The notes beneath the pieces were generated by a model. That model did not search any database. It saw only the letters and a program-made list of their open reading frames with translations, and was not told where the DNA came from. Shown here in pieces: positions 4,275 through 53,890 of a stretch of DNA of 64,000 nucleotides. The DNA is from Magnetococcales bacterium (lineage in GTDB: Bacteria; Pseudomonadota; Magnetococcia; Magnetococcales; UBA8363). Numbering within the stretch: position 1 is the first letter of the stretch; every line of letters starts with the position of its first letter. A program made the position numbers and the translations under genes. The DNA is taken from positions 1,515 through 65,514 of the forward strand of contig JADGCQ010000009.1 in the NCBI GenBank assembly GCA_015228925.1, in the 5' to 3' direction.

Positions 4275-4997
4275 TCAAAAACGCCGTCCTACCCAAACAA
4301 CCCGCCCCACAATCGACAACCGCTCCGCTTGTTCCAGGGTGATTTTAATATCCTCGTAGGCGTCATTGTCATTTTTGATGGTCACCGAACCGTCAAATCC
4401 CCGTTGTAACCGTTTGGCGACCAGATCTTCATCCCGCCGCATGACATAAATAGCATCATTGCGCATGCTGTGATCCCTCTGATCCAGTAACACCAAATCC
4501 CCTTCCTTTAAGGTTGGTTCCATGGAATCCCCAACAATGCTGACCAAGGCAATTTTTTTCGGATCCAGGCGCATGACCGAATGGATCCAATCGGACTTGA
4601 AAGCGATGTGATCCACAACCTGTCCACAATGAAAAGGATCTTCGGTTTCTCCGCTGACCTGGATGCTGAAACGCGGGACGATGACATAAGATTGTGGTGG
4701 AACGTGGTACTGCTCTCCCGGTTCTCTGGCCATGGTTATCGAATCGTCTGAAGGGACGACCGAGACATGGTTTAACCATGGATGCCCCTTTCCAGTCAAA
4801 AGCCAATTAATGGAAATATTGGTATTCATGGCGATTTTGATGAGGGTGCTTGTTTGCGGACACGCCCCCTTATTCAAGATACCCGCCAAAGTGGATTTGC
4901 CCAGTCCAATGCGGGCCGCAAACGCATAGGGACGTTCTTTGCCAATCACAAATTCCAGACGTTCTTTCAGTTGATCCATAGGAAGTTTTTCGGGCAT
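4275..4997 (-). CDS. cI/LexA-type repressor: N-terminal XRE-family HTH plus C-terminal S24 self-cleaving peptidase
   Basis: The HTH region is AFAARIGLGKSTLAGILNKGACPQTSTLIKIAMNTNISINWLLTG. The S24 region is VGDSMEPTLKEGDLVLLD...VAKRL (Ser/Lys dyad context). I chose ATG 4997 (MPEKL) because GGAG lies about 9 nt upstream; the track start at 5027 has no SD. Confidence 0.8.
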   Translation of the reverse strand: MPEKLPMDQLKERLEFVIGKERPYAFAARIGLGKSTLAGILNKGACPQTSTLIKIAMNTNISINWLLTGKGHPWLNHVSVVPSDDSITMAREPGEQYHVPPQSYVIVPRFSIQVSGETEDPFHCGQVVDHIAFKSDWIHSVMRLDPKKIALVSIVGDSMEPTLKEGDLVLLDQRDHSMRNDAIYVMRRDEDLVAKRLQRGFDGSVTIKNDNDAYEDIKITLEQAERLSIVGRVVWVGRRF

Positions 4998-5017
4998 GGC
5001 CATCTCCATAAATGTAA

Positions 5018-5050
5018 AACGAACCATAATGAATAATAACGAACCATAAT
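5018..5050. promoter_or_regulatory. two direct copies of AACGAACCATAAT, operator half-sites (ACGAAC = reverse complement of GTTCGT)
   Basis: The 13-nt repeat occurs at 5018-5030 and 5038-5050, 20 nt apart, immediately upstream of the repressor start. It shares the GTTCGT/ACGAAC half-site with the two palindromes downstream. Confidence 0.4.
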
Positions 5051-5262: not shown

Positions 5263-5589
5263 ATGAAACAAGACCAAACCGTCAAAGATGAGATATTAAA
5301 AATAATAAAAGAATTCAATATGTTGAAATACAGCATTGCCGCCGTTGAAAGCGATATGGATGTAAGCATCCAAAGAATAAAAAAAACGGGATCCGCTTTT
5401 TCCGAACCCAGGCGTCAAAGAATGCATTTTTTGATCATGAAACTCGCCAAGATGATTGCGGAAAACCGGGAGAGATTATTCCACGACCAATCCCACGGAA
5501 TGTGCCAAGTCGTCATCCAACTGGAACCCCATGAATCCATGACGATAACCATCGAATCCAACGTACAACAGGAGCATTTTTCATCATGA
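5263..5589 (+). CDS. hypothetical protein (first gene of the rightward unit facing the repressor)
   Basis: The track ORF is 5218-5589. I prefer the in-frame ATG at 5263 (MKQDQTVKDE...) because GGAG lies 9 nt upstream. I recognise no motif. The 3' end overlaps the next start (ATGA). Confidence 0.5.
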   Translation: MKQDQTVKDEILKIIKEFNMLKYSIAAVESDMDVSIQRIKKTGSAFSEPRRQRMHFLIMKLAKMIAENRERLFHDQSHGMCQVVIQLEPHESMTITIESNVQQEHFSS

Positions 5590-5957
5590 AAAACCCATTG
5601 CTTGCAGCCACATTTCCCGAATCGTTGAAAGAAATACGTGACGTGATTGGATTGGACAGCACGTTAAAGCTTGTGACGAGTTGTGGCGGCACCCGCGTTT
5701 TTATCCCCAAACATATCAGTGCGCAACATCGGTTGGCCAATTTATTGGGCATCCGAGCAGCGCGTCGGTTGAGTCATTATTTTGGGGGGGAGAGTGTGAC
5801 GGTGGTACGCGGGGCCCCTGCGCTCCGTGCTTTGCGTAACAAGGAGATTATTGATCAATACAGCAAAGGGGTGCGCGTCGCCGACCTAGCCAGGGCCTTT
5901 GCTCTGACGGAGCGGAGGATTTACAGCATACTATCAGAGACAAACGACAAAACTTAA
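5586..5957 (+). CDS. Mor-family (phage Mu middle operon regulator-like) transcriptional activator
   Basis: 123 aa. The sequence FPESLKEIRDVIGLDSTLKLVTSCGGTRVFIPK...AARRLSHYFGGESVTVVRG...RNKEIIDQYSKGVRVADLARAFALTERRIYSILS is colinear with the Mor/C family, with the HTH at the C-terminus. Confidence 0.8.
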   Translation: MKNPLLAATFPESLKEIRDVIGLDSTLKLVTSCGGTRVFIPKHISAQHRLANLLGIRAARRLSHYFGGESVTVVRGAPALRALRNKEIIDQYSKGVRVADLARAFALTERRIYSILSETNDKT

Positions 5958-6020: not shown

Positions 6021-6052
6021 CCGGCTTTTGGTATTTTTGCATCAAAAGCCGG
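6021..6052. terminator. 10-bp stem hairpin between convergent genes (possible bidirectional terminator)
   Basis: CCGGCTTTTG (6021-6030) pairs with CAAAAGCCGG (6043-6052) around a 12-nt loop. There is no clean T-run on either side, so confidence is low. Confidence 0.35.
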
Positions 6053-6057
6053 ATTAA

Positions 6058-6741
6058 CTAAAGCACTTTTTTCAAGGATTGCTCAATTCTATTGGACATG
6101 GAAGAGATTTCGCTGATCACCCGGTCGATATCTCCGGCCAGGTCTCTGGCAACACGGGCGGTGCTTTTCACTTCGCCAGCGACGACGGCGAACCCTTTGC
6201 CGAATTCGCCGGCACGCGAGGCTTGAATACCGGCGTTGATAGCCAACACTTCAAGTTCATTGGATATTTTTTCAATTCCATGGAGTGTTTTAGAAACGTC
6301 ACGGGTATTGCGGTCGATTTCCTGCCGCACGCTTGACAGGTCGGTGAAAACCTGATCATTGGCCTTGTTGCGGTTTTCTTCGATGATTGTGATGAACAAC
6401 ATGGCAGCACTCAGGCTGATGACCTGAGCGGTCCCCCGGTTGTTATGGAGAAAGTCTGACGTTTCAGAAGATTCCGAGGCATCGAGGATCAGATCGGCGG
6501 CAAAGTTTTTGACGGCCATTTCCGGCTTGGTCAAGGTTTTGATGCCCAAGCGCATGGCCAGGGTCATCGCTGGGGCATTGGCGTCGGGATCGACGACATA
6601 GATTGGCTCGGCCCCTTTGCTCTTCTGGAAAATTTCCAAAAGGTTTTTACTTTTTTCGCCACCGCCGACGATACCGACTTTTTTTTTGCCTTCACTTGTT
6701 TCCATTTTCCACTCCAACGTTTGCCCACCCAACAGTCCCAT
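6058..6741 (-). CDS. atypical short protein: Rossmann-like N-domain fused to a minimal methyl-accepting chemotaxis (MCP) signalling-tip segment
   Basis: The C-terminal ELEVLAINAGIQASRAGEFGKGFAVVAGEVKSTA matches the invariant MCP hairpin tip (LALNAAIEAARAGExGRGFAVVAxEV). The N-terminal KKVGIVGGGEKS...IYVVDPD resembles a dinucleotide-binding beta-alpha-beta unit. There are no TM, HAMP or methylation helices. Total length is 227 aa. Confidence 0.7.
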   Translation of the reverse strand: MGLLGGQTLEWKMETSEGKKKVGIVGGGEKSKNLLEIFQKSKGAEPIYVVDPDANAPAMTLAMRLGIKTLTKPEMAVKNFAADLILDASESSETSDFLHNNRGTAQVISLSAAMLFITIIEENRNKANDQVFTDLSSVRQEIDRNTRDVSKTLHGIEKISNELEVLAINAGIQASRAGEFGKGFAVVAGEVKSTARVARDLAGDIDRVISEISSMSNRIEQSLKKVL

Positions 6742-6939
6742 GGATCACGCCGTCTTTTTACCACAATTTGCGGGTGACTTGGTACCTTTCTTAACGAGTT
6801 TCAGGAATTTCGGTCGAAAATTTGCGTCTTCCATTTTTTGATTTGGAGTACAACCGCTCTGGGGTGTAGACTTAAAGACGCTATCACTCTTACCAAAGCA
6901 CACTCTCTCGGCAACAAGGTTCGGGGAAAGGATATCTGC

Positions 6940-8624: not shown

Positions 8625-8695
8625 GGGGGGTCGAAAAGTAACCATGGTTCATGTGCTATCAAGACCGTCGATACCAAAACGGGGCGTGTACTGAC

Positions 8696-10682: not shown

Positions 10683-10702
10683 GGCGAAGCGGGAGAGTTA
10701 TT

Positions 10703-11470
10703 TTGCCAGAACTGGATTTGCAAGAGCAGTTTCGTCCGCCGGACAACCTTCCACCGGGACACTTGTGGTTAGGCAGGGTGCTGTTTGCCTTGCGTCCCTG
10801 GCTGGATTTGCAGGTGGGGTCGGTTTTGCTGCCGTTGATTCCTTGGCTGCGTGGTCGCCGAGGCAAGGTGTTGGAAGTGGGTTGCGGAGCGCAACCTTAT
10901 CGGCATTTTTTATCCGATGCCAGTGTTTATCGCTGCTTGGATTGGTCCGGGGCAGAACCCTACTTCAATTATGCGACTCCCGATACGGAAAGGTATCATG
11001 GGGAGCGGTTTCCCGTTGAAGACGGTTGGGCAGAGCATGTGTTTCATACAGAAGTTTTGGAGCATGTTTGGGACATGCCTGGTTTTTTGGCAGAGTGCCG
11101 CCGGGTGATGGCGGCTGGAGGGAGTCTGTTTTTCACCATACCATTTCAGGCGCGCTACCATTACATTCCCCACGATTATTGGCGGTGTACTCCGGCGGCT
11201 TTGGAGCGCATGCTGCGTGAGGCAGGCTTTCAAGATGTCCAGATCACTTCCCGTGGGACCGATGTGACCGTGGCCATTTACAAAGTTGTCAGTGTGGTCT
11301 ATCGGCTGTTGTTGAGCAAGCAGTGGGTCAACACTGCGATTGGCATCGTTTTACTTCCGTTGTTGGTGACTGGTTTGGTGCTGGGACAGATCTCCCTTCG
11401 CAGCCGGTGGGGATCGACGGATGATACGTTGGGTTATGTGATCACTGCTTCTGTTGCCAGTAGCCAATAG
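10703..11470 (+). CDS. class I SAM-dependent methyltransferase with C-terminal membrane anchor
   Basis: SAM motif I is VLEVGCGAQPY and the acidic loop is LEHV. C-terminal hydrophobic helices are present. The start is a TTG taken from the track, so it is uncertain. Confidence 0.6.
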   Translation: MPELDLQEQFRPPDNLPPGHLWLGRVLFALRPWLDLQVGSVLLPLIPWLRGRRGKVLEVGCGAQPYRHFLSDASVYRCLDWSGAEPYFNYATPDTERYHGERFPVEDGWAEHVFHTEVLEHVWDMPGFLAECRRVMAAGGSLFFTIPFQARYHYIPHDYWRCTPAALERMLREAGFQDVQITSRGTDVTVAIYKVVSVVYRLLLSKQWVNTAIGIVLLPLLVTGLVLGQISLRSRWGSTDDTLGYVITASVASSQ

Positions 11471-11505
11471 CGTCAATTCGTTACGTTTCCCAAAGGACAT
11501 CCCCC

Positions 11506-13062
11506 ATGCCGGTACGGATCACCTTGTACGATTATGCCTACGAAACTCTGGCCATTCAGTATCTGGCATCCATACTGATGCAGGAGGGTTTTCCGGCCAG
11601 TGTCCATTACGACTTATCCATGGATATGGATTATCTGGATCAGGATTTTTTCCTGACCAAATGGCTCTCGCTAACCCCCTTGGAGGCGGCCAAAGGGATA
11701 TTGGAACACAAACCGGAGGTGGTGGGGTTTTCGCTGCTGACCCCTTTTTATGTGAAGCTACGCCGCATTATCCGTGCCGTTAAAGAATTGGCACCGGAGG
11801 TGGTTGTCGTGGCGGGTGGACCACATCCGACGCTGGTTCCGGCGGGTACATTGGAAAATCACGATATTGATTTCATTTTTGTAGGCGAAGCAGATTTTTC
11901 TCTTCCGAATTTTCTCAGACTTTTGGAAAACGAAGGACTTGAAAAAGTGAGGTCATTGCCTAAAGAGGCGATGCCAGGGGTATGGAATCGTTTTGGTGAG
12001 GAGATTAGGGATCGTGGTTACGGCCCGTTCCGGGGTAACCTAGATGAGGTACCGTTTCCAGAGAAGGACGCTTATTATTTGCGTAATCCTTCCTTGAGAC
12101 TTTTGTATACGGCAACGTGCAGTCGGGGCTGCGTATTTTCCTGTACGTATTGCAATAGCAGTACTTTGCGAAAGATTTATAAAGAGGAGTGCGGAGAACG
12201 TTATTTTCGCGTCCGTTCGGTGGGTAATGTCATTGAGGAACTGCGGCAAGCTAAAGAACGTTACCGGCCAAAGTATGTGATGTTTTTGGACAATCTGTTT
12301 GCCCCGCAAATATCATGGCTGCGGAAATTTGCCGAAGAATATCCTCGTGAAGTTGGTTTGCCATTTTTTTGCGAGACCAATCCCATGTCACACACCAGAG
12401 AAAGTTTGGAGTTAATTGCCAAAGCGGGTTGCGTGTTGTTGCAGTTTGGATTCCAGAGTGCCAATGAAGAGGTACGCCGTACCATTCTTGGTCGTCGTGA
12501 GTCCAATGATCGTATCCGGGAGCTGGTTGTGGCGGCCAGAGAATTGGGAATGTTTGTGTGTGTAGACCACATTGCCAACCTGCCTGGGGAGGTGCGGGCA
12601 CATTTGGATGAAGCTGTAGCTTTATATCAAGAAATTCGTCCTAATTGGATCAATCTTGGTTTTTTGCAATATTATCCAGAATCAGACATCATTGAAATAG
12701 CCATTTCTCGCCGTTTTATGACCCGGGAAGAGGTATTGCCTATTTTCCGCGGTGAGAGCCAAAGTTCGTTTCGTTTGTTGGCCCGTTCAGGACTTGGAGA
12801 ATTTTACCATACTTTGCCCATACGTTTGTTTGCCGCATTCAAGCTTCCGCCACGGATGGGTAATTGGGTGATTGGGTTGTTGGAACACAGACTGTTCACC
12901 CGATCCCTCTCCTGGAGTGCTTCGCTATTCATTTACGCATCCAGAATTTTTTATGCGTTCACAGACAGGAGGGATTTTCTGATACGGCACCATATTGTTC
13001 GTAACCTCTACGTCATTAAAAACTTGGCGTTAGAAAAATGGAGACTGCATGGCGGACACTGA
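11506..13062 (+). CDS. B12-binding-domain radical SAM enzyme (class B)
   Basis: The N-terminal flavodoxin-like B12 domain reads VVGFSLLTPFY...VVVVAGGPHPT. The radical SAM cluster motif is CVFSCTYC (Cx3Cx2C). 518 aa. Confidence 0.85.
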   Translation: MPVRITLYDYAYETLAIQYLASILMQEGFPASVHYDLSMDMDYLDQDFFLTKWLSLTPLEAAKGILEHKPEVVGFSLLTPFYVKLRRIIRAVKELAPEVVVVAGGPHPTLVPAGTLENHDIDFIFVGEADFSLPNFLRLLENEGLEKVRSLPKEAMPGVWNRFGEEIRDRGYGPFRGNLDEVPFPEKDAYYLRNPSLRLLYTATCSRGCVFSCTYCNSSTLRKIYKEECGERYFRVRSVGNVIEELRQAKERYRPKYVMFLDNLFAPQISWLRKFAEEYPREVGLPFFCETNPMSHTRESLELIAKAGCVLLQFGFQSANEEVRRTILGRRESNDRIRELVVAARELGMFVCVDHIANLPGEVRAHLDEAVALYQEIRPNWINLGFLQYYPESDIIEIAISRRFMTREEVLPIFRGESQSSFRLLARSGLGEFYHTLPIRLFAAFKLPPRMGNWVIGLLEHRLFTRSLSWSASLFIYASRIFYAFTDRRDFLIRHHIVRNLYVIKNLALEKWRLHGGH

Positions 13063-13723
13063 GGAGATTACACGTAATCTATTAGAGATGTATGGGCATG
13101 ATGATTGGATCATGCGCGGCAACTTTCGCATTTTTCTGGAATTGTCCGGCATAGCGAGTTTACCTCGTTCTGCGGCAATTTTGGATTTGGGTTGCGCTAT
13201 GGGGCATTTCATGCGGCTGCTACAGAACCAGGGTTTCAGTCATGTAACAGGTGTGGATGCCGCTCCCGCCATGGTGGATATTGCCCGAAAAATAACCGGT
13301 TGTACCATCCATTTGAGCGATGCCACCCTGTGTGATCAATTATTGACTCCGGGGAGTCAGGATGTCATCGTCATATCCGACCTGATTCACCACCTGGAGA
13401 AAGTGAGTGAATGGGAGAGATTGCTGATGGGGTGTCATCGACTTTTGAAACCGGGTGGTATTTTGGTGATTCGGGAACCTTGGCCTACGCTGATAGTGCG
13501 ACTGTTGCAGTTTTTTTCACAATTCCCTGTATTGTATCGAGGGGCAATGGCGGCGCGGTTACGTTCTTTTCAAGAAGAGAAAAATCTGCTTGAGCATTTT
13601 TACACCCACTGGATAACCGATTATCCGCAGCATATTGCCCGGGCCGGGTTTGCGAAAGGTCGGGATCTGGTCTGGCTGGTCCATCGGATAACGGTCTGCG
13701 TCCGTCGGGAGTCAACACCGTGA
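13049..13723 (+). CDS. class I SAM-dependent methyltransferase
   Basis: Motif I is ILDLGCAMGHF, with DVIVISDLIHHL and LKPGGILVI also present. It overlaps the upstream gene by 14 nt. Confidence 0.75.
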   Translation: MADTEEITRNLLEMYGHDDWIMRGNFRIFLELSGIASLPRSAAILDLGCAMGHFMRLLQNQGFSHVTGVDAAPAMVDIARKITGCTIHLSDATLCDQLLTPGSQDVIVISDLIHHLEKVSEWERLLMGCHRLLKPGGILVIREPWPTLIVRLLQFFSQFPVLYRGAMAARLRSFQEEKNLLEHFYTHWITDYPQHIARAGFAKGRDLVWLVHRITVCVRRESTP

Positions 13724-14184
13724 GACCGGGAATGCACCTGCTGTCGGCGGTTGGTTTGGGTGCTGTGGTATGGCACCAGACCGGGGTGGTATCGTGGGCA
13801 TTGGCCATAGCGTCAGGGGCTTTTTTGTTGGATTTGGACCATATGGTGGATTATCTGGTTCACAAAAAAGGGAGACAGATTTCTATTCAAGAATTTCTGG
13901 TGCCGGGCCAACCGTCCACTTGGCAGAGAATGGTTTTCTTTATGCACGGTTATGAGTGGATTGTGGGGTTGGGCTGGCTTGCCTGGAACTATCATCTGCC
14001 CATTCTGTCATGGATGGTTTGCGGTGCAGGTATCCATCTTCTCATGGACGAAGTGGGCAACCGATTGCCAGGCAACAGACATCGCATTTCGCCGTTCTTT
14101 TATTTTTTCTGTTTTCGTTTGAGCAAGGGATTTCAGACGAAAAAAATTTCCTATTGGGTTAACGAGGAAGGTCAAGAAGTATGA
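13720..14184 (+). CDS. small polytopic membrane protein, DUF457/YdjM-like (putative metal-dependent hydrolase fold)
   Basis: It has about 4 hydrophobic helices, with LLDLDH and IHLLMDE His/Asp motifs. Both ends overlap neighbouring genes by 4 nt. Confidence 0.45.
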   Translation: MRPGMHLLSAVGLGAVVWHQTGVVSWALAIASGAFLLDLDHMVDYLVHKKGRQISIQEFLVPGQPSTWQRMVFFMHGYEWIVGLGWLAWNYHLPILSWMVCGAGIHLLMDEVGNRLPGNRHRISPFFYFFCFRLSKGFQTKKISYWVNEEGQEV

Positions 14185-15242
14185 TTGATCTGCGAACCAT
14201 GGCTGGATTGGGCTACCAAATCGTGCGAAGCAATGTGCGCAAGGAAAGACAGCCGGTTTTTCTCAGTCTGTACATTACCAACCGGTGCAATTTAAAATGT
14301 AGCTATTGTTTCGTTGTCGATCCGCGTTTTTCCAAAGAATTTTTGCGGATGCAACTCAGTTTGGGAGAAATTAAAGAAATAGTCGATGAATTTTATGCCA
14401 TGGGCATGAGAATGATTTTCATGCTTGGTGGGGAACCTTTAGTCCATAAGGAGATTGGTCCCATTATCGAGCATATTGTCAACAAAGGGATTTATTTACA
14501 GGTTGTAACCAATGGTCAGTTGATTGAGCGGAGGTTGGAATCCTTGCGCCGGGTTCATGGTTTATGTGTCAGTTTGGACGGTTTGGATGAAGCCACGGAT
14601 GTGATTCGTGGTGCTGGTGTGTATGAGAAAGCTTTACAAGGTATTCGTGTGGCTGTGGCCAATCGTATTCCAACGCGGGTTCATGCGGTGCTAACGCGCA
14701 ATAATTTGCACCATATACGTCCTTTGGCTGAGTTGTGTCGATCTTTGAAGGTAGCGATGACCATTTCGCCACCCAATTTTCTTGGAGAGGCGGAACAGGA
14801 TTATTTAAATATCACCAGTGACGAATACCGGAAGTTTTGGAAAGGTTATCTGGACTTATACATCGAAGGTCTTCCCATAGCGAATTCACCCCTGGCCATT
14901 AAGAAATGTATGAACTGGCCTAAACATTATCACCATTATATCCGGCGGGGAGAAGAATTCCCCGGGTATAAACCCACATTTTGCATGAATGGGTATACAT
15001 ATGTTGCCGTTGGGGCCGATGCTACCATGTATAATTGTATTAATTTGGGTCCCACCCATGGTCCCAACATACGGACCGTAGGTTTGCGTAAGGCTTGGGA
15101 GCAATTGTTGGATTATCGCCCCGACTGTGTTTCCTGCTCCAGCATCAATTGTATTGAGACCTCCCTTTTACTCAAGCTGCGTTTAAGTGCTATTTGGGAA
15201 GGGATGCGTTTTCATAAGGGTATGGTGCCGAATGGCAGTTAA
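14181..15242 (+). CDS. radical SAM enzyme with C-terminal SPASM/twitch-like Cys cluster
   Basis: The cluster motif is ITNRCNLKCSYCF (Cx3Cx2C), with GGEPL also present. The C-terminal cysteines are FCMNG...YNCINLG...DCVSCSSINC. Confidence 0.85.
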   Translation: MIDLRTMAGLGYQIVRSNVRKERQPVFLSLYITNRCNLKCSYCFVVDPRFSKEFLRMQLSLGEIKEIVDEFYAMGMRMIFMLGGEPLVHKEIGPIIEHIVNKGIYLQVVTNGQLIERRLESLRRVHGLCVSLDGLDEATDVIRGAGVYEKALQGIRVAVANRIPTRVHAVLTRNNLHHIRPLAELCRSLKVAMTISPPNFLGEAEQDYLNITSDEYRKFWKGYLDLYIEGLPIANSPLAIKKCMNWPKHYHHYIRRGEEFPGYKPTFCMNGYTYVAVGADATMYNCINLGPTHGPNIRTVGLRKAWEQLLDYRPDCVSCSSINCIETSLLLKLRLSAIWEGMRFHKGMVPNGS

Positions 15243-15253
15243 TTCCAAAGTAT
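15207..15253 (+). repeat. 47-bp direct repeat, copy 1 (covers the radical-SAM stop and the GT-C start)
   Basis: The sequence cgttttcataagggtatggtgccgaatggcagttaattccaaagtat matches 16842-16888 at 44/47 positions. Confidence 0.9.
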
Positions 15254-16773
15254 ATTTACAAAAAATATCTGCGAAAATACAGGAATGGCACCTTTTCGTG
15301 GCGATATGCCTATATCATTTTATATTGGCACTTTATTATAAGGAAGTTTCGGGAGTCTCTATAGAGACTTCATGGAATCTTTGGACTATGCAACTGATCC
15401 CAAGGGATCTTCTTGAACATAAATTCCTGGAAAGCCTTTGGAATCTGCACGTGCAACCGCCCCTTTATAATGTTTTGGCAGGGATGATCCTTAAATTATC
15501 CCCTTCCAATTATTACCCAATTATGCATTATTTTAATATAGGACTTGGGACAATCGCAAGCGGAATGACATTTATTATTATTGCAACAATCACTCGAAAT
15601 CGGATATTTTCTTTTATCGTTGCTGCTCTCCTTATAAACAACCCAGCCATTTATTTATACGAAGCTTATAATTTATATGCCTTCCTTACAAGTTATTTTG
15701 TTATACAGTCTGTCTTTTTTGTAGCTTGTTTTGTCCGGGACAAAAAATCCCATAACCTTATATTATTTGTTCTTTCTCTCAATCTTTTAGCCTTGACGCG
15801 GGGCAGTTTCCATTTATTTGTCCCTTTGTCGGGTTTGTTTTTCTCATGTCTTATTGTTCCAAGGCGTGAGGTATTTCGGGTGTTTTTTTTGTCGTTATTG
15901 ATGTGCATTCCCACATTAGGCTGGTATGGGAAGAATCAGGTTAAATTTGGATTCTTTGGTACAAGCAGTTGGTTAGGTGGCAATTTTTTCAATGCTGTTC
16001 TTGGGGGATACCAATACCGGGACACACCAGAAGCGCGGAGTTATGTTGATAATCTTGTTGCCAAAGGGATCATTGATCCTATGGTAGGTCGGTATCCTAC
16101 GGCCCTGTTGAGTGTGGCAACTATTCGGGAGGAGGGGTTTAACAAACAATCGACGATTGAGGCTCTGAATAGAGAAAATTTTATGAATATCAATTATATC
16201 GATGTTTATAAAGTTTATTTACGCAGTTCCCTTAATGTAATCAGGTATGATCCGGTGCAGTGGTTAAAGATTATTTCCACATCTTATGAGAGGTATTGCC
16301 GCCCTTCAACGGTTTTCAAGCATCTTATTTATGGCCGGACGAAAAATGAACCAGGCAACGCTGCGAAAATGACGTTGCCTGTGTTCGTCTATGAAAATAT
16401 TTTCCTTGGCAAGCAATGGATGCGTCCTAGTAACCAACCGGGTGGAATCAAGATGGGATCTATTTTATTTTTTGTTTTTCCCTTGTCGTTTGTATTGTAT
16501 CTGGTGCTGCTGTTGCGGGAGGGAAATGCGTCCTGGTGTGGCATTATCGGTTACATCAGAGATAATCCTATCCTGTTTGTCATTCTAACCTTTGTACTCT
16601 ATAGCACCCTGGTCTCGTGCATGTTTGCTTACGATGAGAATGAGAGATATAAATTTGATATTGAACAAGTATTCTACGTTGGTCTTGCGGGTATCTGCTA
16701 CACGTTATGGCCTCGATCATCGTTTCGGCCACCAGGGTGCGTGATCGGATCTTCCTTCTGCTCAACAGGCTGA
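15232..16773 (+). CDS. polytopic membrane protein, GT-C fold glycosyltransferase-like (ArnT/PMT family 39/83-like)
   Basis: It has at least 10 predicted TM helices, an early periplasmic-loop motif LHVQPPLYNVL (compare the conserved xPPL of ArnT/PMT) and a large loop in the C-terminal half. ATG 15232 (MAVNSK) overlaps the upstream stop. The gene is AT-rich. Confidence 0.6.
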   Translation: MAVNSKVYLQKISAKIQEWHLFVAICLYHFILALYYKEVSGVSIETSWNLWTMQLIPRDLLEHKFLESLWNLHVQPPLYNVLAGMILKLSPSNYYPIMHYFNIGLGTIASGMTFIIIATITRNRIFSFIVAALLINNPAIYLYEAYNLYAFLTSYFVIQSVFFVACFVRDKKSHNLILFVLSLNLLALTRGSFHLFVPLSGLFFSCLIVPRREVFRVFFLSLLMCIPTLGWYGKNQVKFGFFGTSSWLGGNFFNAVLGGYQYRDTPEARSYVDNLVAKGIIDPMVGRYPTALLSVATIREEGFNKQSTIEALNRENFMNINYIDVYKVYLRSSLNVIRYDPVQWLKIISTSYERYCRPSTVFKHLIYGRTKNEPGNAAKMTLPVFVYENIFLGKQWMRPSNQPGGIKMGSILFFVFPLSFVLYLVLLLREGNASWCGIIGYIRDNPILFVILTFVLYSTLVSCMFAYDENERYKFDIEQVFYVGLAGICYTLWPRSSFRPPGCVIGSSFCSTG

Positions 16774-16907: not shown

Positions 16908-19337
16908 CTAACTCTGGGCTGGAAGCTGATCAGTGGAATTCCCAAAGAAAAAGCGGGAAAGCCAATGGATCCATCGAAGGTAGAAAAAATCTTTATACGG
17001 GGGTTCATAGGTTAAAATAACTTCGTGAATTCCCTGCGGGACCATGCAACCCAAAAAGGTGTGATAAGCGGGAAAAGCCCCGGTCGGGACTCCATCGATG
17101 CGTACCCGCCAAGCCGGATTGTAATTGAAGACCGACACGAGAATGCCTAGTGATGAGTAATCAACCCTCAGGATAATCTTGTCTGGGGAATATAAAATAT
17201 TTTGTATCTCTGCCCATTGGTTTTCCGATGGATCTCCAAAATCCACATTCCCATCTCCCTCCTGCATAAAAACATGCGATTGCAATTGCTCCCTGGAAGA
17301 TTGGCCAAGTTCCTCAAGCAATTTTTCCTTGGTAGAAAAAATCTTCTGCGCAAATACCCCAAAATAACGGGGAAACGGGTCGGTGAGACGATAGATATGA
17401 AGGATTAGGTTTTCACGCAAGCTCGGATCACCAAAACGAGACCAAAAACCAAAGGCGGCCAAAGGTTTGCGCACTTGAATGGATTCCACATGGCTCAATT
17501 CTGCATCATTGAGGCGTACAGGAGAGAAGACATAATGAACATTGGCAAGGCGTAACAGATTAATGTTTATCGATTCTCCCATTCTGAAAGGTTCATCCAA
17601 AAGCATGGTTTCCGGGAGAAGACGGAAGTATAATTTGTAGCTCCCATGGGGAAAAGGGCCAAGCCTGTTGAGAATCGGAGCGGTCATGACGTTCCAATAC
17701 TCTAAAAACCTTTTTGGAATTAGGGCATTGTAGCCGTCAATCGTTTCAAAATTATGACTGATGAGCAAAGATGGAAAATAATTTTTTTCTCTGATCATCG
17801 CCGCTCTGAATGGCATGGTATCCAACTCCGTCAGAGAATGGTGTACCCTGCGCAATTCAGGTTGATCCAGGTATTCCTGTTGACTACCACTGCGTATCGT
17901 CATCCCTATCGACTGCGTAATCCAACCCAATGTCCCGAAGGTGGTGAGCAAAAAAAGAAGGGATAGTGAGCCATAAACCAACCATTCATACCCTTTTCGC
18001 ATCCTTGAACTCGATGGCGTCCGTATTGACAGTGTTAAATAGCGTGCAGAAAATAAAAGCATCGTCAAAGGGAAAACCTGCGCAAACCGCCAAAATCGTA
18101 TAATCTTAAAAAGACCCAGTGAAAACAAAAATTCGACAAGGAATCTGGAGCCGGCCAGGAGGAATGGTAGAAGAAGAAACAAAATATCCAGCATATTCCT
18201 AGAGTATCTTTTTTCCCGCACCCCATGAAAAAAACATCCAATGGTAGCCACAAACAAACACCATCCAAGGCTCCAAGAAAATGGCGTGAGGAAATAATTG
18301 CCGATAATGGGACGATTTGTTCCGATCACTGCTGAGAAACTAGCAAAACTCTCAATTGTATGTATAACAATATCAATACTATACCAGTATATCCTCTTGA
18401 TAAACAACACTATAATGTAAACCCAGGACAGGGAAGTCGTCTCAACCAAAGGTTGCAGCAACGTCTGACTTTCTTGGATCGCTGGGTTGAAACGATATGA
18501 AAGGGGTATGGCAAACTGAACCGCCATAAAAATGGCAAGGGTTGGAATAACCATTCCAGCATGAAGGAAGGTTATGTAAATAATTCTCGATTTTAAACAA
18601 CCGCGCCCATCATAAAATAATAGAATATAAATAATTATAAATGTTGATATATACACAATATCAGCAACTTCAGCCATAAAAAAAGCCGCGTAGAAAAATC
18701 CCATCGCAAATGCTATGCTACAGGAGATCGTTTTTTTTCTGAGGTTTCCTTCAATCTCTATCAGATACGCCAACCCTCCCGTAACCCAAGGGAGTACGGC
18801 ATAGGCCATATTGGAGAAGGGGTCGTTCCGGACAGAAGTGAGGACGTAATAGAGCGTTGCCAAAAATCCTGTCAATAACCGCGATCCGTTTTCACGTTTC
18901 AGAAGAAAATAGGCCCCGGAAATCGACAGAATCATATAGAGCGCAACATTGATACGATATGCTGTCATCGGATCAAACAGATTAAATAAAATTTGATTGA
19001 TTCCTACAAATTTTTCATCCTGAGAAAGTCCATCAAAACCGGCAACGAAATTGGGATGCCAGTAGGACAGGCCGTGTTTTTTATAATTCGACGCATTTGA
19101 AATGAGTTGTATCAGAGGACCATCGACACCATCACTGAACCGGACATAGGAATCCTCTCCCAGCATAAAATAAGGGGCGAAAAGAACGATAGCCACAACG
19201 ATGAGGACGCCCCCCCAAGCAGCTTTTTTTTCATGCTGAAATCTCTCCGGTTTTTGTTCAGTTTGAATTGAGAATCCCCCGCCCCTCAGGTCTCCATTCC
19301 CATCAAAATCATCGAAGGATAGGCACGATGAAACCAA
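16908..19337 (-). CDS. YfhO-family polytopic membrane protein (GT-C type extracytoplasmic glycosyltransferase-like); start codon problematic
   Basis: 809-codon frame with about 13 or more TM helices. The C-terminal soluble domain ending ...FNYNPAWRVRIDGVPTGAFPAYHTFLGCMVPQGIHEVILTYEPP is typical of YfhO. The frame opens at a TTG (19337) without an SD. The only SD-ATG (19234) is +1 out of frame behind an A8 tract; see findings. Confidence 0.65.
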   Translation of the reverse strand: MVSSCLSFDDFDGNGDLRGGGFSIQTEQKPERFQHEKKAAWGGVLIVVAIVLFAPYFMLGEDSYVRFSDGVDGPLIQLISNASNYKKHGLSYWHPNFVAGFDGLSQDEKFVGINQILFNLFDPMTAYRINVALYMILSISGAYFLLKRENGSRLLTGFLATLYYVLTSVRNDPFSNMAYAVLPWVTGGLAYLIEIEGNLRKKTISCSIAFAMGFFYAAFFMAEVADIVYISTFIIIYILLFYDGRGCLKSRIIYITFLHAGMVIPTLAIFMAVQFAIPLSYRFNPAIQESQTLLQPLVETTSLSWVYIIVLFIKRIYWYSIDIVIHTIESFASFSAVIGTNRPIIGNYFLTPFSWSLGWCLFVATIGCFFHGVREKRYSRNMLDILFLLLPFLLAGSRFLVEFLFSLGLFKIIRFWRFAQVFPLTMLLFSARYLTLSIRTPSSSRMRKGYEWLVYGSLSLLFLLTTFGTLGWITQSIGMTIRSGSQQEYLDQPELRRVHHSLTELDTMPFRAAMIREKNYFPSLLISHNFETIDGYNALIPKRFLEYWNVMTAPILNRLGPFPHGSYKLYFRLLPETMLLDEPFRMGESININLLRLANVHYVFSPVRLNDAELSHVESIQVRKPLAAFGFWSRFGDPSLRENLILHIYRLTDPFPRYFGVFAQKIFSTKEKLLEELGQSSREQLQSHVFMQEGDGNVDFGDPSENQWAEIQNILYSPDKIILRVDYSSLGILVSVFNYNPAWRVRIDGVPTGAFPAYHTFLGCMVPQGIHEVILTYEPPYKDFFYLRWIHWLSRFFFGNSTDQLPAQS
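19210..19231 (-). repeat. A8 (19224-19231) and G7 (19210-19216) homopolymers at the 5' end of the YfhO-like gene
   Basis: The minus strand reads ATGAAAAAAAAGCTGCTTGGGGGGGC. I confirmed the tract lengths against the track translation (HEKKAAWGG). Confidence 0.85.
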
Positions 19338-19606
19338 AACTCATTGTCTGCATCAAGCAGCGTTCACCAACGTCTGATTCTTGCGCTGGCCGAGGAAGCT
19401 TGGCATTGGTTGACCAACTGCAACAAGGTATCCAGAAAAAAGGGTTGAACATTGATTTGGAGACGGTTCACTGTCTGGGGGAATGTCATCAGGGGCCGAA
19501 TATGCGTCTTGCCCCTGGAGGCGAATTTTTTCATGGCGTGGAAACCAAAGACATCGAGACGATTATCGATAAAATGGCGGATTTCCTCACCAAGAATCCC
19601 CCGTGA
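19328..19606 (+). CDS. thioredoxin-like [2Fe-2S] ferredoxin
   Basis: The sequence is MKPKLIVCIKQR...CAGRGS...VHCLGECHQGPNMRL, with 4 Cys in the spacing of the NuoE/thioredoxin-like Fdx family. I trimmed the track ORF to ATG 19328. Confidence 0.7.
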   Translation: MKPKLIVCIKQRSPTSDSCAGRGSLALVDQLQQGIQKKGLNIDLETVHCLGECHQGPNMRLAPGGEFFHGVETKDIETIIDKMADFLTKNPP

Positions 19607-47583: not shown

Positions 47584-50500
47584 TCAGTGTTGAATTTCCT
47601 GATGATAATCCTGGAGAGCCTTGCAACGAAAACCCGATTCCTGAATGGCCGCCATGGCCGCCACCGCCGCCCGCATCCCGGCAATGGTGGTAAAATAGGG
47701 AATCCGCCCCAAAAGGGCACTGCGACGCAAGGATAATGAATCGGCAAGGGCCTGTTTACCCTGGGTGGTATTGAATACCAGCAGGATATCGCCATTTTTC
47801 ATCATATCCACAATATCGGGCCGCCCTTGGTTGACCTTGTGGATCTTGGTGACTAAAAGCCCCTCCATACCCAGATAATGCGCCGTACCCTCGGTGGCGC
47901 AAATCGTAAATCCCATCTCGACCAATCTTTGCGCCGGTTGCAGAACCGCGCTCTTATCCTCATCCTTGACAGAGATACAAGCCATCCCCCGCACCCCGGC
48001 CCCCGGCCTGGGGAGAATGGTCCCCGCACTCTCCTGCGCTTTGGCAAATGCCAGGGCAAAAGAATCGGCCAGTCCCATGACCTCGCCGGTCGATTTCATC
48101 TCCGGTCCCAAAACGGTATCCACCCCCGGAAATTTTTCAAAAGGAAACACCGCTTCCTTGACCGCCATATGGGTAAATCGCGGCTCCCGCCCCAAACCAA
48201 TAGCACTCAGGCGTTCCCCCGCCATGATACGCGCCCCAACTTTGGCCAGAGGCACCCCGGTCGCCTTGGAAACGAACGGCACCGTCCGTGACGCCCGCGG
48301 GTTGACCTCCAAAATATAAACCGCCCCCTGGCAAATGGCAAACTGAACGTTCATCAGGCCAACCACTTTCAAAGCTTTGGCCAAAAGAACCGTTTGTCGT
48401 TTGATCTCTTCGATCAAGTCCTGACCAATGGAATACGGCGGCAAAGAACAGGCGGAATCCCCCGAATGAATCCCCGCCTCCTCGATATGCTCCATGACAC
48501 CACCCACCAAAACATCGTCACCATCGGCGATACAATCGACATCGATTTCAATGGCATCGCTTAAAAAATGGTCCAACAACACCGGATGATCTGGGGATGC
48601 CCGCACGGCGGTACGCATGTAGCGTTCCAGATCGCTTGCGGCATAAACGATCTCCATGGCCCTGCCACCCAAAACATAGGAAGGACGGACCACAATGGGA
48701 TAACCGACCGATGCCGCAATGGCCATCGCCTCGGCCTCAGAACGGGCAATGGCATTTTTCGGCTGCCTAAGCCCCAACGTCTCCAATAACACCTGAAATC
48801 TTTCCCGATCTTCCGCTTGGTCGATGGCATCGGGACTGGTGCCAATGATGGGGGCACCCGCAGCCTCCAAGGATTTGGCCAATTTCAAAGGTGTCTGACC
48901 ACCCAACTGGACGATAATCCCCTGGGGACGTTCGATTTCAACAATGTTGAGGACATCCTCCAGGGTCAACGGTTCAAAATAGAGCCGGTCGGAGGTGTCA
49001 TAGTCGGTGGAGACCGTTTCCGGGTTGCAATTGACCATAATCGTCTCAAACCCCGCCTCCTTAAGGGCAAACGCGGCATGAACACAGCAATAATCAAACT
49101 CAATCCCCTGACCGATGCGATTGGGTCCACCACCCAAGATCATGATTTTGCGGCGGTCGCTGGGGGCCGCTTCGCATTGCACCTCGTAGGTAGAATACAA
49201 ATAGGCGGTCTGCGATGAAAATTCAGCCGCGCAGGTATCGACCCGTTTAAATACCGGCTTCACCCCATGGCTGTGACGGACTGCCCGAATCTCCGCCTCA
49301 TGCGATCCCATGATGCGCGCCAAAGTCGCATCGGAAAACCCCATCCGTTTCAATTCCAGCCAGTTTTCACGAGAAAGATCCTGAGGATGTCTCCCATACA
49401 ACAACCGCTCTTTTTCGACGATCTGCTGAATCTGGTCCAAAAACCAAGGATCAATCGCCGTCACCTGGTGTATCCAGGCCAACGAACGGCCACACCGAAA
49501 CGCATCGGCCACCAGAAGAATGCGATCAGGGCCAGCAAAATGAAGCTGCCGTTCCAAAGCGGCATCCCGTTCCCCCTGGGAATCATACGGTTGTGCCGCA
49601 AAAATGGGATCAAAACCATCCAGCCCCGTCTCCATGGAACGCAAAGCCTTGTGCATCGATTCCTTGAAGGTGCGGCCAATGGCCATGGCCTCCCCCACCG
49701 ATTTCATCTGTGTCGTCAAGGTTGCTTCCGCCTGGGGAAATTTTTCAAAGGTAAACCGGGGAATCTTGGTGACCACATAATCGATGGTGGGTTCAAAGGA
49801 TGCTGGGGTAACACCTGTGATATCATTCATGATTTCTGGAAGCGTATACCCAACCGCCAGCTTGGCGGCCACTTTGGCGATGGGAAATCCGGTCGCCTTG
49901 GAGGCCAGAGCCGAAGAACGGGAGACCCGTGGATTCATCTCGATGACGACCATACGGCCATTTTCTGGACTGATGGCAAACTGGACATTGGAACCGCCCG
50001 TATCCACACCCACCTCCCGGAGAATGGCAATGGAGGCATCCCGCAATTCTTGATATTCCTTGTCGGTCAACGTCAGTGCCGGTGCCACCGTGATGGAGTC
50101 GCCGGTATGAATCCCCATGGGATCGATATTCTCGATCGAGCAAACGATAATCGCGTTATCATCCCGATCCCGAACGACTTCCATTTCAAATTCTTTCCAG
50201 CCAATCAGGGATTCTTCGATCAGCACCTCGCCGGTGGGCGATGCGGCAAGCCCGCGGCGCACGATGGCCTCATATTCCTCCATGTTGTAAGCCACCCCCC
50301 CCCCGGTCCCTCCCAAAGTATAACTGGGCCGGATAATCAAGGGGAAAGGGATCTGTTGATGGATCCCCAAGGCGTCATCCCAATTGTGGGCAAACCCACT
50401 CTGGGCCATCTCCAGACCAATTTTGGTCATCGCATTTTTGAATAATTCCCGGTCTTCCGCTTTGGCGATGGCGTCACGGGAGGCACCGATCAATTCGCAG

Positions 50501-50844
50501 CCAAACTTTTCCAGGACACCCAGTTCTGCCAGCTTCATGGCCAGATTCAGGGCTGTTTGACCGCCCATGGTAGGCAACAGGGCATCGGGTCTTTCCTGCT
50601 CGATGATGCGGGTGACGACCTCCACCGTCAGCGGCTCGACATAGGTACGATGGGCCAGATTGGGATCGGTCATGATGGTGGCCGGATTGGAATTGACCAA
50701 CACGACCTGATAGCCCTCTTCGCGCAGGGCCTTGCAGGCTTGTGCCCCAGAATAGTCAAACTCGCAGGCCTGACCGATAACGATCGGCCCGGCACCGATA
50801 ATAAAGATTTTTTTGATATCGTCCCGTCTTGGCATAGCCGTCAC
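47584..50844 (-). CDS. carB: carbamoyl-phosphate synthase large subunit
   Basis: 1086 aa, with duplicated ATP-grasp halves and an N-terminus [35 protein letters not shown]. Confidence 0.95.
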
Positions 50845-52660: not shown

Positions 52661-53890
52661 ATGTCTCTTTCAGAAAAGAGGTTACAACAACGGAGAAATA
52701 AAAAAAATGCAAAAAAACAATCGCGAAAGAAAAACACTATAGGGACATTGATAGGTTCTTACGGCAACATCCATGCCGCGATCAACGCACCTGTTCATGA
52801 ATGCCTTGTCAGTGAAACTCTGGAAGATGATGGAATTGGGAATGTATTTTTCAGCAGAAAAATGTTGAATGGTGACATTGCATTAGGTTCTTTTCTTATC
52901 GATATCTATTGTTTAGGCGTAAAGGATTCTTTTTTTAGAATCATTTCAGAGCATGAATATCAACATTTTATTGGAAATAGTCCGCAGAAGATGGAAACGA
53001 TTCACCCTGCATGTGCCAGGAAACTGATTGAAGGATCGGTTGAATTTGCGCACCAATATGGAATTGCTCCGCATAAAGAATATAAAACTGTCATGTTGAT
53101 ATTTGGCGATTTTGATTCTGATGTTTGTCCTTCAAGCTATGAATATGGAAAGGACGGTGAACCATTATTTATCCCCGGACCCTATGATAGCCAAAAGAAA
53201 ATTAAAGAAATATTTGAAAAAATTGGTTACGACGATCTCAGCGTGTTAAGGGGCGTTTCTGGTGAGCTATCGCCTGAAGATTTGGAGGGATTGGGACCTG
53301 ATTACGAGTATGTTAATTTTGAGATTACTGAAGATGCATTGCCCGATAAAAAACTCGATCAACTCACGGCAGCAGAGCGTGACGAATTAGACGCAATCCA
53401 TGACCAATTGACTTTGGGATCTCACAAAGTCATACGAAGATTGCAAGAATTCATTCAGAAGTATCCAGATATTCCAGTGCTGTATAATTATCTTTTTGTT
53501 TCATACAGTTGTTCAAACAATACAGAAAAAACTATCGAAACACTTGCAAAATGCATGGAATTATTCCCCGATTATTTATTCTCGAAAATTGCTCATTGCC
53601 ATCAAAAAATGAATGAAGGCGATATGGAAATTGTTCCAAAAGTTTTTGATGGAAGATTTGATCTCTCTTTCCACATCAAGGATAGAAGAACATACCATAT
53701 TTCTGAGTTTACAGGCTTTAATGCACTCATGGTTCGTTATTTTAAAATGATCGGAAAAGAAAGAATTGCAAAAAATTTTCTTGAACTATTGGAAAGAGTT
53801 GCTCCAGACCATCCTACCACCCAGAGTGCCAAACGCTTTCTCAATCCAGGACTTCTCCATAAATTTATTAATAAGATGCGAAATGTATGA
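52661..53890 (+). CDS. hypothetical protein (409 aa; basic N-terminus, helical-repeat C-terminal half)
   Basis: It is a long uninterrupted ORF in the AT-rich island. The N-terminus is KRLQQRRNKKNAKKQSRKKN. I can name no catalytic motif. Confidence 0.5.
   Translation: MSLSEKRLQQRRNKKNAKKQSRKKNTIGTLIGSYGNIHAAINAPVHECLVSETLEDDGIGNVFFSRKMLNGDIALGSFLIDIYCLGVKDSFFRIISEHEYQHFIGNSPQKMETIHPACARKLIEGSVEFAHQYGIAPHKEYKTVMLIFGDFDSDVCPSSYEYGKDGEPLFIPGPYDSQKKIKEIFEKIGYDDLSVLRGVSGELSPEDLEGLGPDYEYVNFEITEDALPDKKLDQLTAAERDELDAIHDQLTLGSHKVIRRLQEFIQKYPDIPVLYNYLFVSYSCSNNTEKTIETLAKCMELFPDYLFSKIAHCHQKMNEGDMEIVPKVFDGRFDLSFHIKDRRTYHISEFTGFNALMVRYFKMIGKERIAKNFLELLERVAPDHPTTQSAKRFLNPGLLHKFINKMRNV

Follow-up and report, generated by a model that had tools for sequence, protein, structure and literature searches.

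A gene on the minus strand of the window (the whole stretch of DNA analysed here, 64,000 nt) appears to have been separated from its own start codon by the loss of a single base. The ATG at 19234, which has a Shine-Dalgarno-like sequence in front of it, lies in a different reading frame from the 771-codon body of a predicted GT-C-fold membrane glycosyltransferase, and the run of A directly behind this ATG is one base shorter than the corresponding stretch of the only close orthologue. The explanation that we favour, and to which we give about an even chance, is a non-programmed slippage deletion of one base; the main rival to a real deletion of this kind is an error of assembly.

The minus-strand locus

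Reading of the sequence confirmed the layout proposed in the initial annotation, in which GGAGAG, a spacer of 8 nt (ATTTCAGC), the ATG, an A8 run and a G7 run follow one another on the minus strand, with GCTGCTT between the two runs (Table 1). The list of open reading frames likewise bore out that the ATG, which is the first start codon in its frame past the upstream stop, does not share the frame of the 809-codon ORF, whose translation includes ...ERFQHEKKAAWGGVLIVVAIVLFAPYF. The ORF opened by the ATG does stop early, as had been claimed, although we count 40 codons rather than about 44. Addition of one A to the A8 run gives MKKKAAWGGVLIVV... and restores the ancestral frame.

In the long frame, neither the sequence nor the ORF reading reveals an ATG, GTG or TTG between the TTG at 19337 and the GTG at 19196. 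It had been stated that the TTG lacks a Shine-Dalgarno sequence, adds 35 residues and overlaps the start of a divergent ferredoxin gene; all of this holds, the TTG being antisense to the first codons of that gene. A distance of 93 nt separates the ferredoxin gene from the ATG at 19234, and the NCBIfam 2Fe-2S ferredoxin models match the ferredoxin below their cut-offs.

Table 1. Features of the locus, in positions of the window.
Feature	Position	Strand	Remarks
Shine-Dalgarno-like GGAGAG	19248-19243	-	from sequence reading; 8 nt upstream of ATG
ATG	19234-19232	-	ancestral start of the DUF6044/GT-C gene; pairs in the alignment with the in-frame ATG that begins P0002, at 1091 of L001
A8 run	19231-19224	-	site of the one-base deficit; 9 nt in the orthologue, AAAAGAAAA
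G7 run	19216-19210	-	part of W-G-G in the conserved frame; orthologue TGG GGT GGC, ungapped
Long ORF	16908..19337	-	809 codons (809 aa), starting at TTG 19337
Gene body	16908..19223	-	771 codons and stop, from GCT (Ala) onwards
Out-of-frame ORF opened by ATG	19112..19234	-	40 codons, MKKKLLGGASSS...*
TTG	19337-19335	-	sole in-frame start upstream as sequenced; no Shine-Dalgarno sequence; adds 35 codons
GTG	19196-19194	-	codon 48 of the long ORF; start of the public 762-aa protein HQL75_03305
Divergent neighbour, ferredoxin	19328..19606	+	92 aa, thioredoxin-like [2Fe-2S]; ATG 19328; PF01257, 25.7 bits

Comparison with the orthologue

The collections searched held one close orthologue, the protein P0002 encoded on Logan contig L001, with 80% amino acid and 85% nucleotide identity. 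Its N-terminus is MKRKAAWGGVIVVVATVLLAPYF (DNA CGCATGAAAAGAAAAGCTGCCTGGGGTGGCGTC), and its 5' end reads in a single frame as ATG AAA AGA AAA GCT GCC TGG GGT GGC. Alignment of the two 5' regions contains a single gap, which falls in the A-run: 8 nt separate the ATG from the Ala codon in the window and 9 nt in L001. Both runs are interrupted in L001, the A-run as AAAAGAAAA and the G-run as GGGGTGG. The nine codons from the A-run to the annotated GTG specify seven identical residues in the two genes, with one L/I and one I/V change, and they differ by two synonymous third-position changes; this pattern indicates that the stretch is coding. The gene is otherwise undisrupted across 775 aligned codons, with a dN/dS of 0.28. 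An intact 771-codon body would equally be expected if the deficit were an artefact.

Since the ATG at 19234 has an in-frame counterpart in L001, we take it to be the ancestral start, and because the same ATG and the residues that follow it begin the orthologue in frame, the out-of-frame combination of Shine-Dalgarno sequence and ATG is not a chance match. We conclude from this sequence comparison that the ATG at 19234 is the true start of the gene, in support of the earlier proposal that the run behind it is one base short. The G7 run, which the initial annotation had drawn into the frame problem, has no part in it (Table 1). As to the tract itself, its ancestral state in this lineage could be A9 or AAAAGAAAA, the comparison being with one close orthologue.

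DNA similarity between the window and L001 reaches back to ~30 nt upstream of the ATG; it vanishes further up, where the neighbouring gene in L001 is a different one, RseC_MucC. By hand count from the alignment, 21 of 33 nucleotides of the upstream region are identical; L001 has AAGAGA in place of GGAGAG, and an additional ATG of L001, at 1061, is aligned to AAA in the window. The upstream residues look alike (NKNRRDFS in the window and NQNKRDFR in L001). A coding region upstream of the ATG and in its frame was considered and rejected, since in the window this frame offers no start codon downstream of the stop at 19288-19286 until the ATG is reached. We read the region as a moderately conserved leader with the ribosome-binding site.

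Exact-protein look-ups with the 762-aa and 809-aa products and with the neighbouring ferredoxin returned nothing on record, and the collections searched contained no further sequence of this species. Scans of genome contigs with P0002 and with a three-sequence alignment found no relative. The sole find of a metagenome scan was a 54%-identical relative, whose ORF is open upstream of its called start (GTG at 120 and 144), and which is uninformative on the tract.

Protein family and N-terminus

The initial annotation had labelled the product a YfhO-like surface glycosyltransferase. This label is appropriate at the level of superfamily and fold, but not as a Pfam family, which is DUF6044 (PF19510): the window protein matches this profile with 38 bits and the orthologue with 49.8 bits against a cut-off of 27, and the profile is also matched by 58 of 60 representatives of the family. 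For the YfhO profile, the match in the window protein covers just the C-terminal ~75 residues and scores 22 bits, below the cut-off of 28.5. Matches to YfhO with E < 0.01 (best 3.9e-12) occur in 55 of the 60 representatives, and the window protein stays below the cut-off; the relationship is therefore one of superfamily.

In an AlphaFold2 model of the orthologue (pLDDT 85.3, pTM 0.88), the helix formed by residues 5-23 is TM1. The top Foldseek matches in the PDB were all GT-C enzymes (AftD, 8e-8; STT3, 9e-6 to 1e-3; AftA, ArnT and PMT), although the TM-scores were modest at 0.34-0.47. Searching the PDB by sequence, whether with the protein alone or with a profile of 60 sequences, gave no significant match; the GT-C identity thus came from fold comparison only. 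On the strength of these models, the gene product is predicted to be a membrane glycosyltransferase with the GT-C fold, belonging to the DUF6044/YfhO superfamily and carrying a YfhO-like C-terminal domain. It resembles the YfhO/DUF6044 GT-C glycosyltransferases in its above-threshold DUF6044 match, its YfhO-like C-terminus, the fold and the conserved acidic residues of the loop after TM1, and it differs from them in that it falls below the threshold of the YfhO Pfam model. A literature search for DUF6044 returned no paper mentioning the family and no reported function of a member.

All 13 N-termini of the family that were aligned consist of a short polar stub, a hydrophobic TM1 of ~15-20 residues and a loop with the motif PY..G..S...D..D. 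In 65 representatives, the median position of the first Asp in the DxxD motif is 43; this Asp lies at 35 in the repaired protein, at 22 with the GTG start and, by hand count, at 69 with the TTG start. Across 60 sequences, residues D35 and D68 in the numbering of P0002 show a conservation of at least 90%, and both follow the TM1 helix; by analogy with other GT-C enzymes, they may be catalytic. The public protein that begins at the GTG (P0001) has the N-terminus MAIVLFAPYF, and of TM helix 1 it keeps just 11 residues. The public annotation therefore starts the protein too late, and its 762-aa product is without the true N-terminus and the greater part of this helix.

Homopolymer runs in the window

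The window contains 20 homopolymer runs of at least 8 nt. Runs of this length are about twelve times commoner throughout the window than base composition predicts; for A and T, there are 16 as compared with ~1.3 predicted from base frequencies (our own arithmetic). Long ORFs harbour 16 of the 20, and all but one of these 16 keep frame, among them G10 in carB, G8 in guaA and C8 in ispH. Coding runs also occur in carA, and their distances from the 5' ends of genes range from 39 to 1059 nt, so that they are not concentrated at 5' ends and include housekeeping genes. We attribute the excess to a preference for AAA, TTT and GGG codons and not to targeted repeats. By itself, an A8 run is unremarkable in this DNA.

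Other frameshifts were sought in the window wherever two long open frames of one strand overlap across a homopolymer. Four candidates (G8 at 9614, A9 at 31100, 1991-4263 and guaB/guaA) proved, upon comparison with Pfam, to be adjacent complete genes, and no other split gene was detected in the window by this search.

Explanations for the missing base

We propose that strand slippage in the A-run of Lys codons could have turned A9 into A8, or removed the G from AAAAGAAAA, and that 8 nt in place of nine would then have cut off the start codon and the Lys-rich stub from the 771-codon body. The deletion is probably real and not a consensus error. It would also be recent in the sampled population, as the gene is undisturbed elsewhere and has been under purifying selection. 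Initiation at the ATG would yield a 40-residue nonsense peptide. The in-frame alternatives would be the TTG, which has no ribosome-binding site, and the GTG or an ATG at codon 58, either of which would drop the first TM helix, the element expected to place the putative catalytic acidic loop outside the membrane. With a nonsense peptide from the ATG and defective alternatives in frame, the allele would be null or strongly reduced. It resembles pseudogenes and frameshifted alleles that arise from indels in mononucleotide runs, and equally assembly errors of run length, in that a one-base change in a run of 8 splits the start from an intact, conserved ORF, and it shares with such alleles a run made of consecutive Lys codons (AAA). 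Nothing sets it apart from them except the position of the run at codons 2-4, as a result of which the whole protein is affected.

The main rival, an assembly or consensus error, is possible but on the unlikely side. It supposes that the organism truly has A9 after the ATG and a normal gene, and that one nucleotide dropped out when the genome was sequenced, amplified or assembled. The intact and conserved remainder of the gene is what a working gene would show, the deficit lies in the type of sequence most prone to length errors, and the record is a metagenome-assembled genome, the consensus of which may carry artefacts of low coverage or mixed strains. Nevertheless, all 15 other coding runs of at least 8 keep frame, G10 in carB and G8 in guaA included, and there is no other split gene; runs are therefore not systematically miscounted by the assembly, although this does not count against a single error. 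A consensus of eight A is usually reliable in Illumina HiSeq/metaSPAdes data. Data of this type were used in a large survey of magnetotactic bacteria (PMC7602337), from which the genome, to judge by its resemblance, may come.

It is also conceivable, but quite improbable, that the sequence is correct and that expression begins at another in-frame codon, either the TTG at 19337 (809 aa, with a 35-residue extension) or the annotated GTG at 19196. The long frame is indeed open back to the TTG, the TTG product has an intact TM1 with KK before it, and the N-terminal stubs of the family vary in length, with DxxD at 70-109 in three of the 65 representatives. The TTG, however, lacks a Shine-Dalgarno sequence and lies antisense within the ferredoxin CDS, so that the mRNA would have to begin inside the neighbouring gene; the 35-codon extension is dissimilar to the DNA upstream of the orthologue, where the alignment gives it no counterpart; and an open stretch of 37 codons would arise by chance in about 1 in 5 to 6 cases, (61/64)^37 by our own arithmetic. 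The GTG would leave 11 hydrophobic residues as compared with a TM helix of ~15-20 in the family, and the codons upstream of it show conservation of the coding type. A scan of the divergent intergenic region for sigma-70 promoters gave no minus-strand site, a result that is uninformative for this phylum.

A further reading is that of the initial annotation, which had suggested a slipped-strand ON/OFF switch: an evolved contingency locus would alternate between A9 (ON) and A8 (OFF) by slipped-strand mispairing and vary a surface glycan, the assembled genome having caught the OFF state. Glycosyltransferase genes are often phase-variable in host-adapted bacteria, and here a mononucleotide run stands directly behind the start codon of a GT-C glycosyltransferase gene that faces, in convergent orientation, a cluster of genes for GT2, methyltransferase and radical-SAM proteins, and a change of one base brings back the ancestral frame. 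The similarity to the contingency loci of Neisseria (lgt), Haemophilus (lic/lgtC), Campylobacter and Helicobacter is that of a 5' mononucleotide tract in a surface-glycan gene in which a shift of +/-1 nt changes the frame. Known phase switches, however, mostly have longer tracts, often of poly-G/C, that are kept across strains, and A8 is at the low, short end of the tract lengths known for high-frequency switching. The present tract is not maintained, being interrupted in the only orthologue, as is the G-run, and its host is an environmental magnetotactic bacterium. Runs of similar length, moreover, are spread over housekeeping genes of the window (carB, carA, guaA and ispH) at any distance from their 5' ends. 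The claim of a switch is thus unsupported, and we consider it very unlikely. If A8 were real and polymorphic, the locus would exemplify variation of the contingency type in a surface-glycan gene of such an environmental bacterium; no finding requires this.

Possible leaky expression by slippage

A real A8 allele could possibly be leaky. In the frame of the ATG, a -1 slippery heptamer, A_AAA_AAG, lies at 19229-19223 (minus strand), where it ends codon 2 and fills codons 3-4, 13 nt downstream of the Shine-Dalgarno sequence used for initiation. A -1 slip of the ribosome on this heptamer would give the ancestral MKKKAAWGG..., as would the insertion of an extra A during transcription of the A8 run. 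In Escherichia coli, the motif A_AA.A_AA.G ranks with the most efficient -1 motifs, although without stimulators -1 slippage in reporters amounted to at most about ten times the 0.055% background (PMC4066793). One-base deletions beside a start codon were rescued to 25-60% by -1 slippage on C-AAA-AAA (PMC1851650), and transcriptional slippage occurs on runs of 8 A in some bacteria (PMC1088944).

The locus shares with dnaX-type -1 frameshifting and with transcriptional slippage on A-runs the heptamer and the restoration of the ancestral protein by a single slip. It differs from dnaX-type frameshifting in having no downstream stimulatory structure: the predicted fold of 19140-19260 on the minus strand has an energy of -32.4 kcal/mol as compared with a mean of -32.7 for shuffled sequences (z = 0.09). 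Given that the downstream RNA has no unusual structure and that unstimulated slippage is low, any rescue may be very small. The AAA AGA AAA of the orthologue is not slippery and is read in a single frame. The two-frame arrangement is therefore not a conserved recoding signal, and rescue by slippage would be incidental. We see little probability that A8 is real and the gene in use, whether through a set low level of expression by slippage, with the Shine-Dalgarno sequence as a stimulator of the ribosomal slip, or as a lineage-specific A8/A9 switch of a surface glycan. Were such a switch real, it would belong to a free-living magnetotactic bacterium and might respond, for instance, to pressure from phages.

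Implications for annotation and for the family

The main value of the finding is one of annotation. The locus is best annotated from the ATG at 19234, either as frameshifted or, after a check of the reads, as corrected to nine A. Beyond this locus, the predicted GT-C fold of DUF6044 proteins and their relationship to YfhO provide a functional handle on an uncharacterised family.

Start region of the DUF6044 gene

The 5′ end of the gene for the DUF6044 (PF19510) membrane protein reads CCGGAGAGATTTCAGCATGAAAAAAAAGCTGCTTGGGGGGGCGTC on the minus strand, and re-reading of the sequence and its ORFs bore out the arrangement of SD-ATG, A8, G7 and frames described in the initial annotation. The long-ORF frame crosses this region as CAT GAA AAA AAA GCT GCT TGG GGG GGC (HEKKAAWGG) and, as sequenced, offers only the codons at 19337, 19196 and 19166 as starts. 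The ATG behind the SD opens an ORF in another frame (19112..19234, minus strand), which has 40 codons rather than the ‘about 44’ first given. Adding one A to the run changes the reading from this ATG to MKKKAAWGGVLIVVAIVLFAPYF.

Features of the DUF6044 gene and of other loci in the window
Feature	Position	Strand	Remarks
GGAGAG (SD)	19248-19243	-	8 nt to ATG
ATG	19234-19232	-	not in long-ORF frame
A8 run	19231-19224	-	followed by GCTGCTT
G7 run	19216-19210	-	after GCTGCTT
Long ORF	16908..19337	-	809 codons; first codon TTG
TTG start, long frame	19337	-	no SD; antisense inside first ferredoxin codons
GTG start, long frame	19196	-	codon 48
ATG start, long frame	19166	-	codon 58
Divergent [2Fe-2S] ferredoxin	start ATG 19328	+	overlapped antisense by TTG 19337
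Cluster convergent with DUF6044 gene	6838-16773	+	one strand
G10 run in carB (47584..50844)	50295-50304	-	GTGGGV glycine loop, in frame
Phage Mu Mor-type activator-like	5586..5957	+	by eye; adjoins MCP ORF 6058..6741(-)
CI/LexA-type repressor-like	4275..5027	-	by eye; same region, 4275-6741

Comparison with an orthologue

Only two proteins came back from a homologue search against 5.8 billion protein clusters. One, P0001, is the public-annotation protein of the window gene itself (762 aa, 100% identity, ‘MAG: hypothetical protein HQL75_03305 [Magnetococcales bacterium]’); its N-terminus, MAIVLFAPYF, shows that GTG 19196 was taken as start in the public annotation. The other, the orthologue P0002 (777 aa, 80% identity, N-terminus MKRKAAWGGVIVVVATVLLAPYF), comes from Logan contig L001 of run SRR25935587, whose start-region DNA is GAGACTTCCGCATGAAAAGAAAAGCTGCCTGGGGTGGCGTC. 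In the pairwise alignment the sole gap of the 5′ region lies inside the A-run (AAAA-AAAA in the window, AAAAGAAAA in L001), and the L001 counterparts of A8 and G7 are both interrupted. Similarity starts ∼30 nt 5′ of the ATG and vanishes farther upstream; identity in the upstream leader is 21/33 positions, counted by hand, as compared with 85% within the gene, and the upstream neighbour in L001 is an RseC_MucC gene where the window has the ferredoxin. From this alignment we infer that ATG 19234 is the true, ancestral start of the gene, that the window is one base short directly after it, and that nothing homologous corresponds to the 35-codon TTG extension. Ten codons before the shared ATG, L001 carries another in-frame ATG (1061-1093, MPNQNKRDFRMKRK...); its aligned counterpart in the window is AAA, so it is not conserved.

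When the window gene was given one extra A and aligned to L001, 775 codons could be aligned, with 80% amino acid and 85% nucleotide identity. Differences at codon positions 1, 2 and 3 numbered 96, 73 and 173, dN/dS was 0.28, and no further disruption was found over the 775 aligned codons. From the A-run to GTG 19196 there are nine codons, encoding AAWGGVLIV in the window and AAWGGVIVV in L001; seven residues are the same, the remaining two are L/I and I/V, and two third-position changes are synonymous. The comparison indicates that the stretch from the A-run to the annotated GTG is coding.

Family, N-terminus and predicted fold

Pfam places the protein in DUF6044: against a cut-off of 27, the window protein scores 38 bits and P0002 49.8 bits, and the match in the 809-aa ORF starts at residue 35, coinciding with the ATG. 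The YfhO profile covers no more than the C-terminal ∼75 residues of the window protein and stays under its cut-off. An exhaustive search gave 1422 family representatives at E ≤ 0.001, and since 58 of 60 representatives match DUF6044 and 55 of 60 also YfhO, the original label ‘YfhO-like’ is fair at superfamily level, the Pfam family proper being DUF6044.

All 13 N-termini aligned open with a short polar segment, which is followed by one hydrophobic helix (∼15-20 residues) and then by a conserved PY..G..S...D..D loop. The first D of the DxxD motif has a median position of 43 in 65 representatives. It falls at 35 in the repaired protein (with A9), at 22 from GTG 19196, below 62 of the 65, and at 69 from TTG 19337 (our own count), a position exceeded by only three. 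In P0003, a 54%-identical relative on metagenome contig L002, TM1 is short from the called start (MMVAVVLL...); upstream (L002 120-200) the ORF stays open to GTG 120 and GTG 144, from which TM1 would be full length.

An AlphaFold2 model of P0002 made with a 60-sequence alignment (pLDDT 85.3, pTM 0.88) has TM1 as helix 5-23. Its top solved-structure matches are all GT-C glycosyltransferases (AftD, 8e-8; STT3 of oligosaccharyltransferase, 9e-6; AftA, ArnT and PMT); the TM-scores are modest (0.34-0.47). The catalytic acidic residues of GT-C enzymes lie in the first extracytoplasmic loop; here the loop that follows TM1 holds two almost invariant residues, D35 and D68. A protein begun at GTG 19196 or ATG 19166 would lack the helix that exports this loop and would be expected to be non-functional.

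In the convergent cluster a transketolase is split into N and pyrimidine-binding parts; alongside it are encoded three SAM methyltransferases, a GT2 glycosyltransferase and two radical-SAM enzymes, one of them B12-binding. Two of its proteins (13720-14184 and 15187-16773) have no Pfam match; the latter, of 528 aa, is highly hydrophobic as judged by eye. The cluster probably serves the modification of glycans or lipids, which fits a glycan-modification role for the DUF6044 gene.

Homopolymer runs and the missing base

Homopolymers of at least 7 nt number 61 in the 64-kb window, and 20 of them reach 8 nt or more. Of these 20, 16 are A or T, where base frequencies predict ∼1.3 (own calculation), and 16 lie within long ORFs, at 5′-end distances of 39-1059 nt; the coding runs include G10 in carB, A8 in carA, G8 in guaA and C8 in ispH. 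Codon preference explains this abundance (AAA 461 versus AAG 268, TTT 512 versus TTC 209, and GGG in 447/1440 Gly codons). The gene's tract is not special, and the run distribution is unlike that of contingency loci. The G10 of carB, the housekeeping gene for the large subunit of carbamoyl-phosphate synthase, is a G/C tract much longer than the G7. Runs in frame and <60 nt from the first start codon occur in ORF 52661..53890(+) (A8 plus A7, 52700-52717) and ORF 6058..6741(-) (A9, 6679-6687), and N-termini rich in Lys through AAA repeats are a recurring feature of the window. L002 carries a hairpin, GGGGGGATGATCCCCCCC, upstream of the P0003 gene (40-100) and, farther downstream, an A8G9 pair. 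These genomes seem to be generally rich in long runs.

In ORF 6058..6741(-) the MCP signalling domain ends at profile position 111/172, at the stop codon; a mobile element may have inserted at 4275-6741 and cut short a gene for a chemoreceptor.

The one-base deficit is an ordinary homopolymer indel or consensus error. On balance we favour a real deletion, the phase-variable case included. That the base is missing from the sequence only, through an assembly or consensus artefact, is possible but rather unlikely. Several observations speak against a systematic error: the frame is kept in 15/15 of the remaining coding runs that reach 8 nt, ORFs of 200 aa and longer by themselves span 81% of the window, and the source data are probably Illumina HiSeq reads assembled with metaSPAdes. 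In such data, genuine frameshifts in genes occur roughly as often as consensus indel errors, or more often. The data type is deduced from a link to a survey of magnetotactic bacteria, to which the MAG probably belongs and which used HiSeq reads and metaSPAdes (PMC7602337). Every other candidate frame switch tested in the window proved to be two complete adjacent genes, which likewise speaks against a systematic error. As for the phase-OFF allele originally proposed, the one point in favour of a switch is that the run sits where it does within a gene for a glycosyltransferase; the tract is short, it is not conserved in the orthologue and the surrounding DNA is full of similar runs, so that we consider a phase-variable A8 very doubtful.

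If the A8 is real, initiation at the SD-ATG would yield a 40-residue nonsense peptide. The run reads ATG AAA AAA AAG in this frame, and A_AAA_AAG at 19229-19223 is the dnaX heptamer; a -1 slip on it would give M-K-K-K-A-A-W..., identical to the A9 product, and one extra A from RNA polymerase would likewise give the A9 protein. In Escherichia coli, A_AA.A_AA.G ranks with the most efficient -1 motifs, and -1 motifs without stimulators reach just 2 to 10 times the 0.055% background (PMC4066793). In pDEST17 constructs, one-base deletions beside the start codon showed 25-60% rescue by -1 slippage on C-AAA-AAA (PMC1851650). Selection against A/T runs in bacteria is typically seen from 9 nt, 8A appears productive in some, and the human apoB A8 run gives ∼10% corrected product (PMC1088944). 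Folding against shuffles detected no stimulatory RNA structure downstream of the A8 run (z = 0.09), and, as regards dnaX-type frameshifting, the slippery arrangement is absent from L001; any rescue would therefore be incidental.

Implications for annotation

The public protein P0001 is N-terminally truncated, its true start being ATG 19234 in a sequence one base short. The initial annotation was right about the out-of-frame start, a catch useful for annotation, and in the DUF6044 family N-terminal starts are probably often placed too far downstream.
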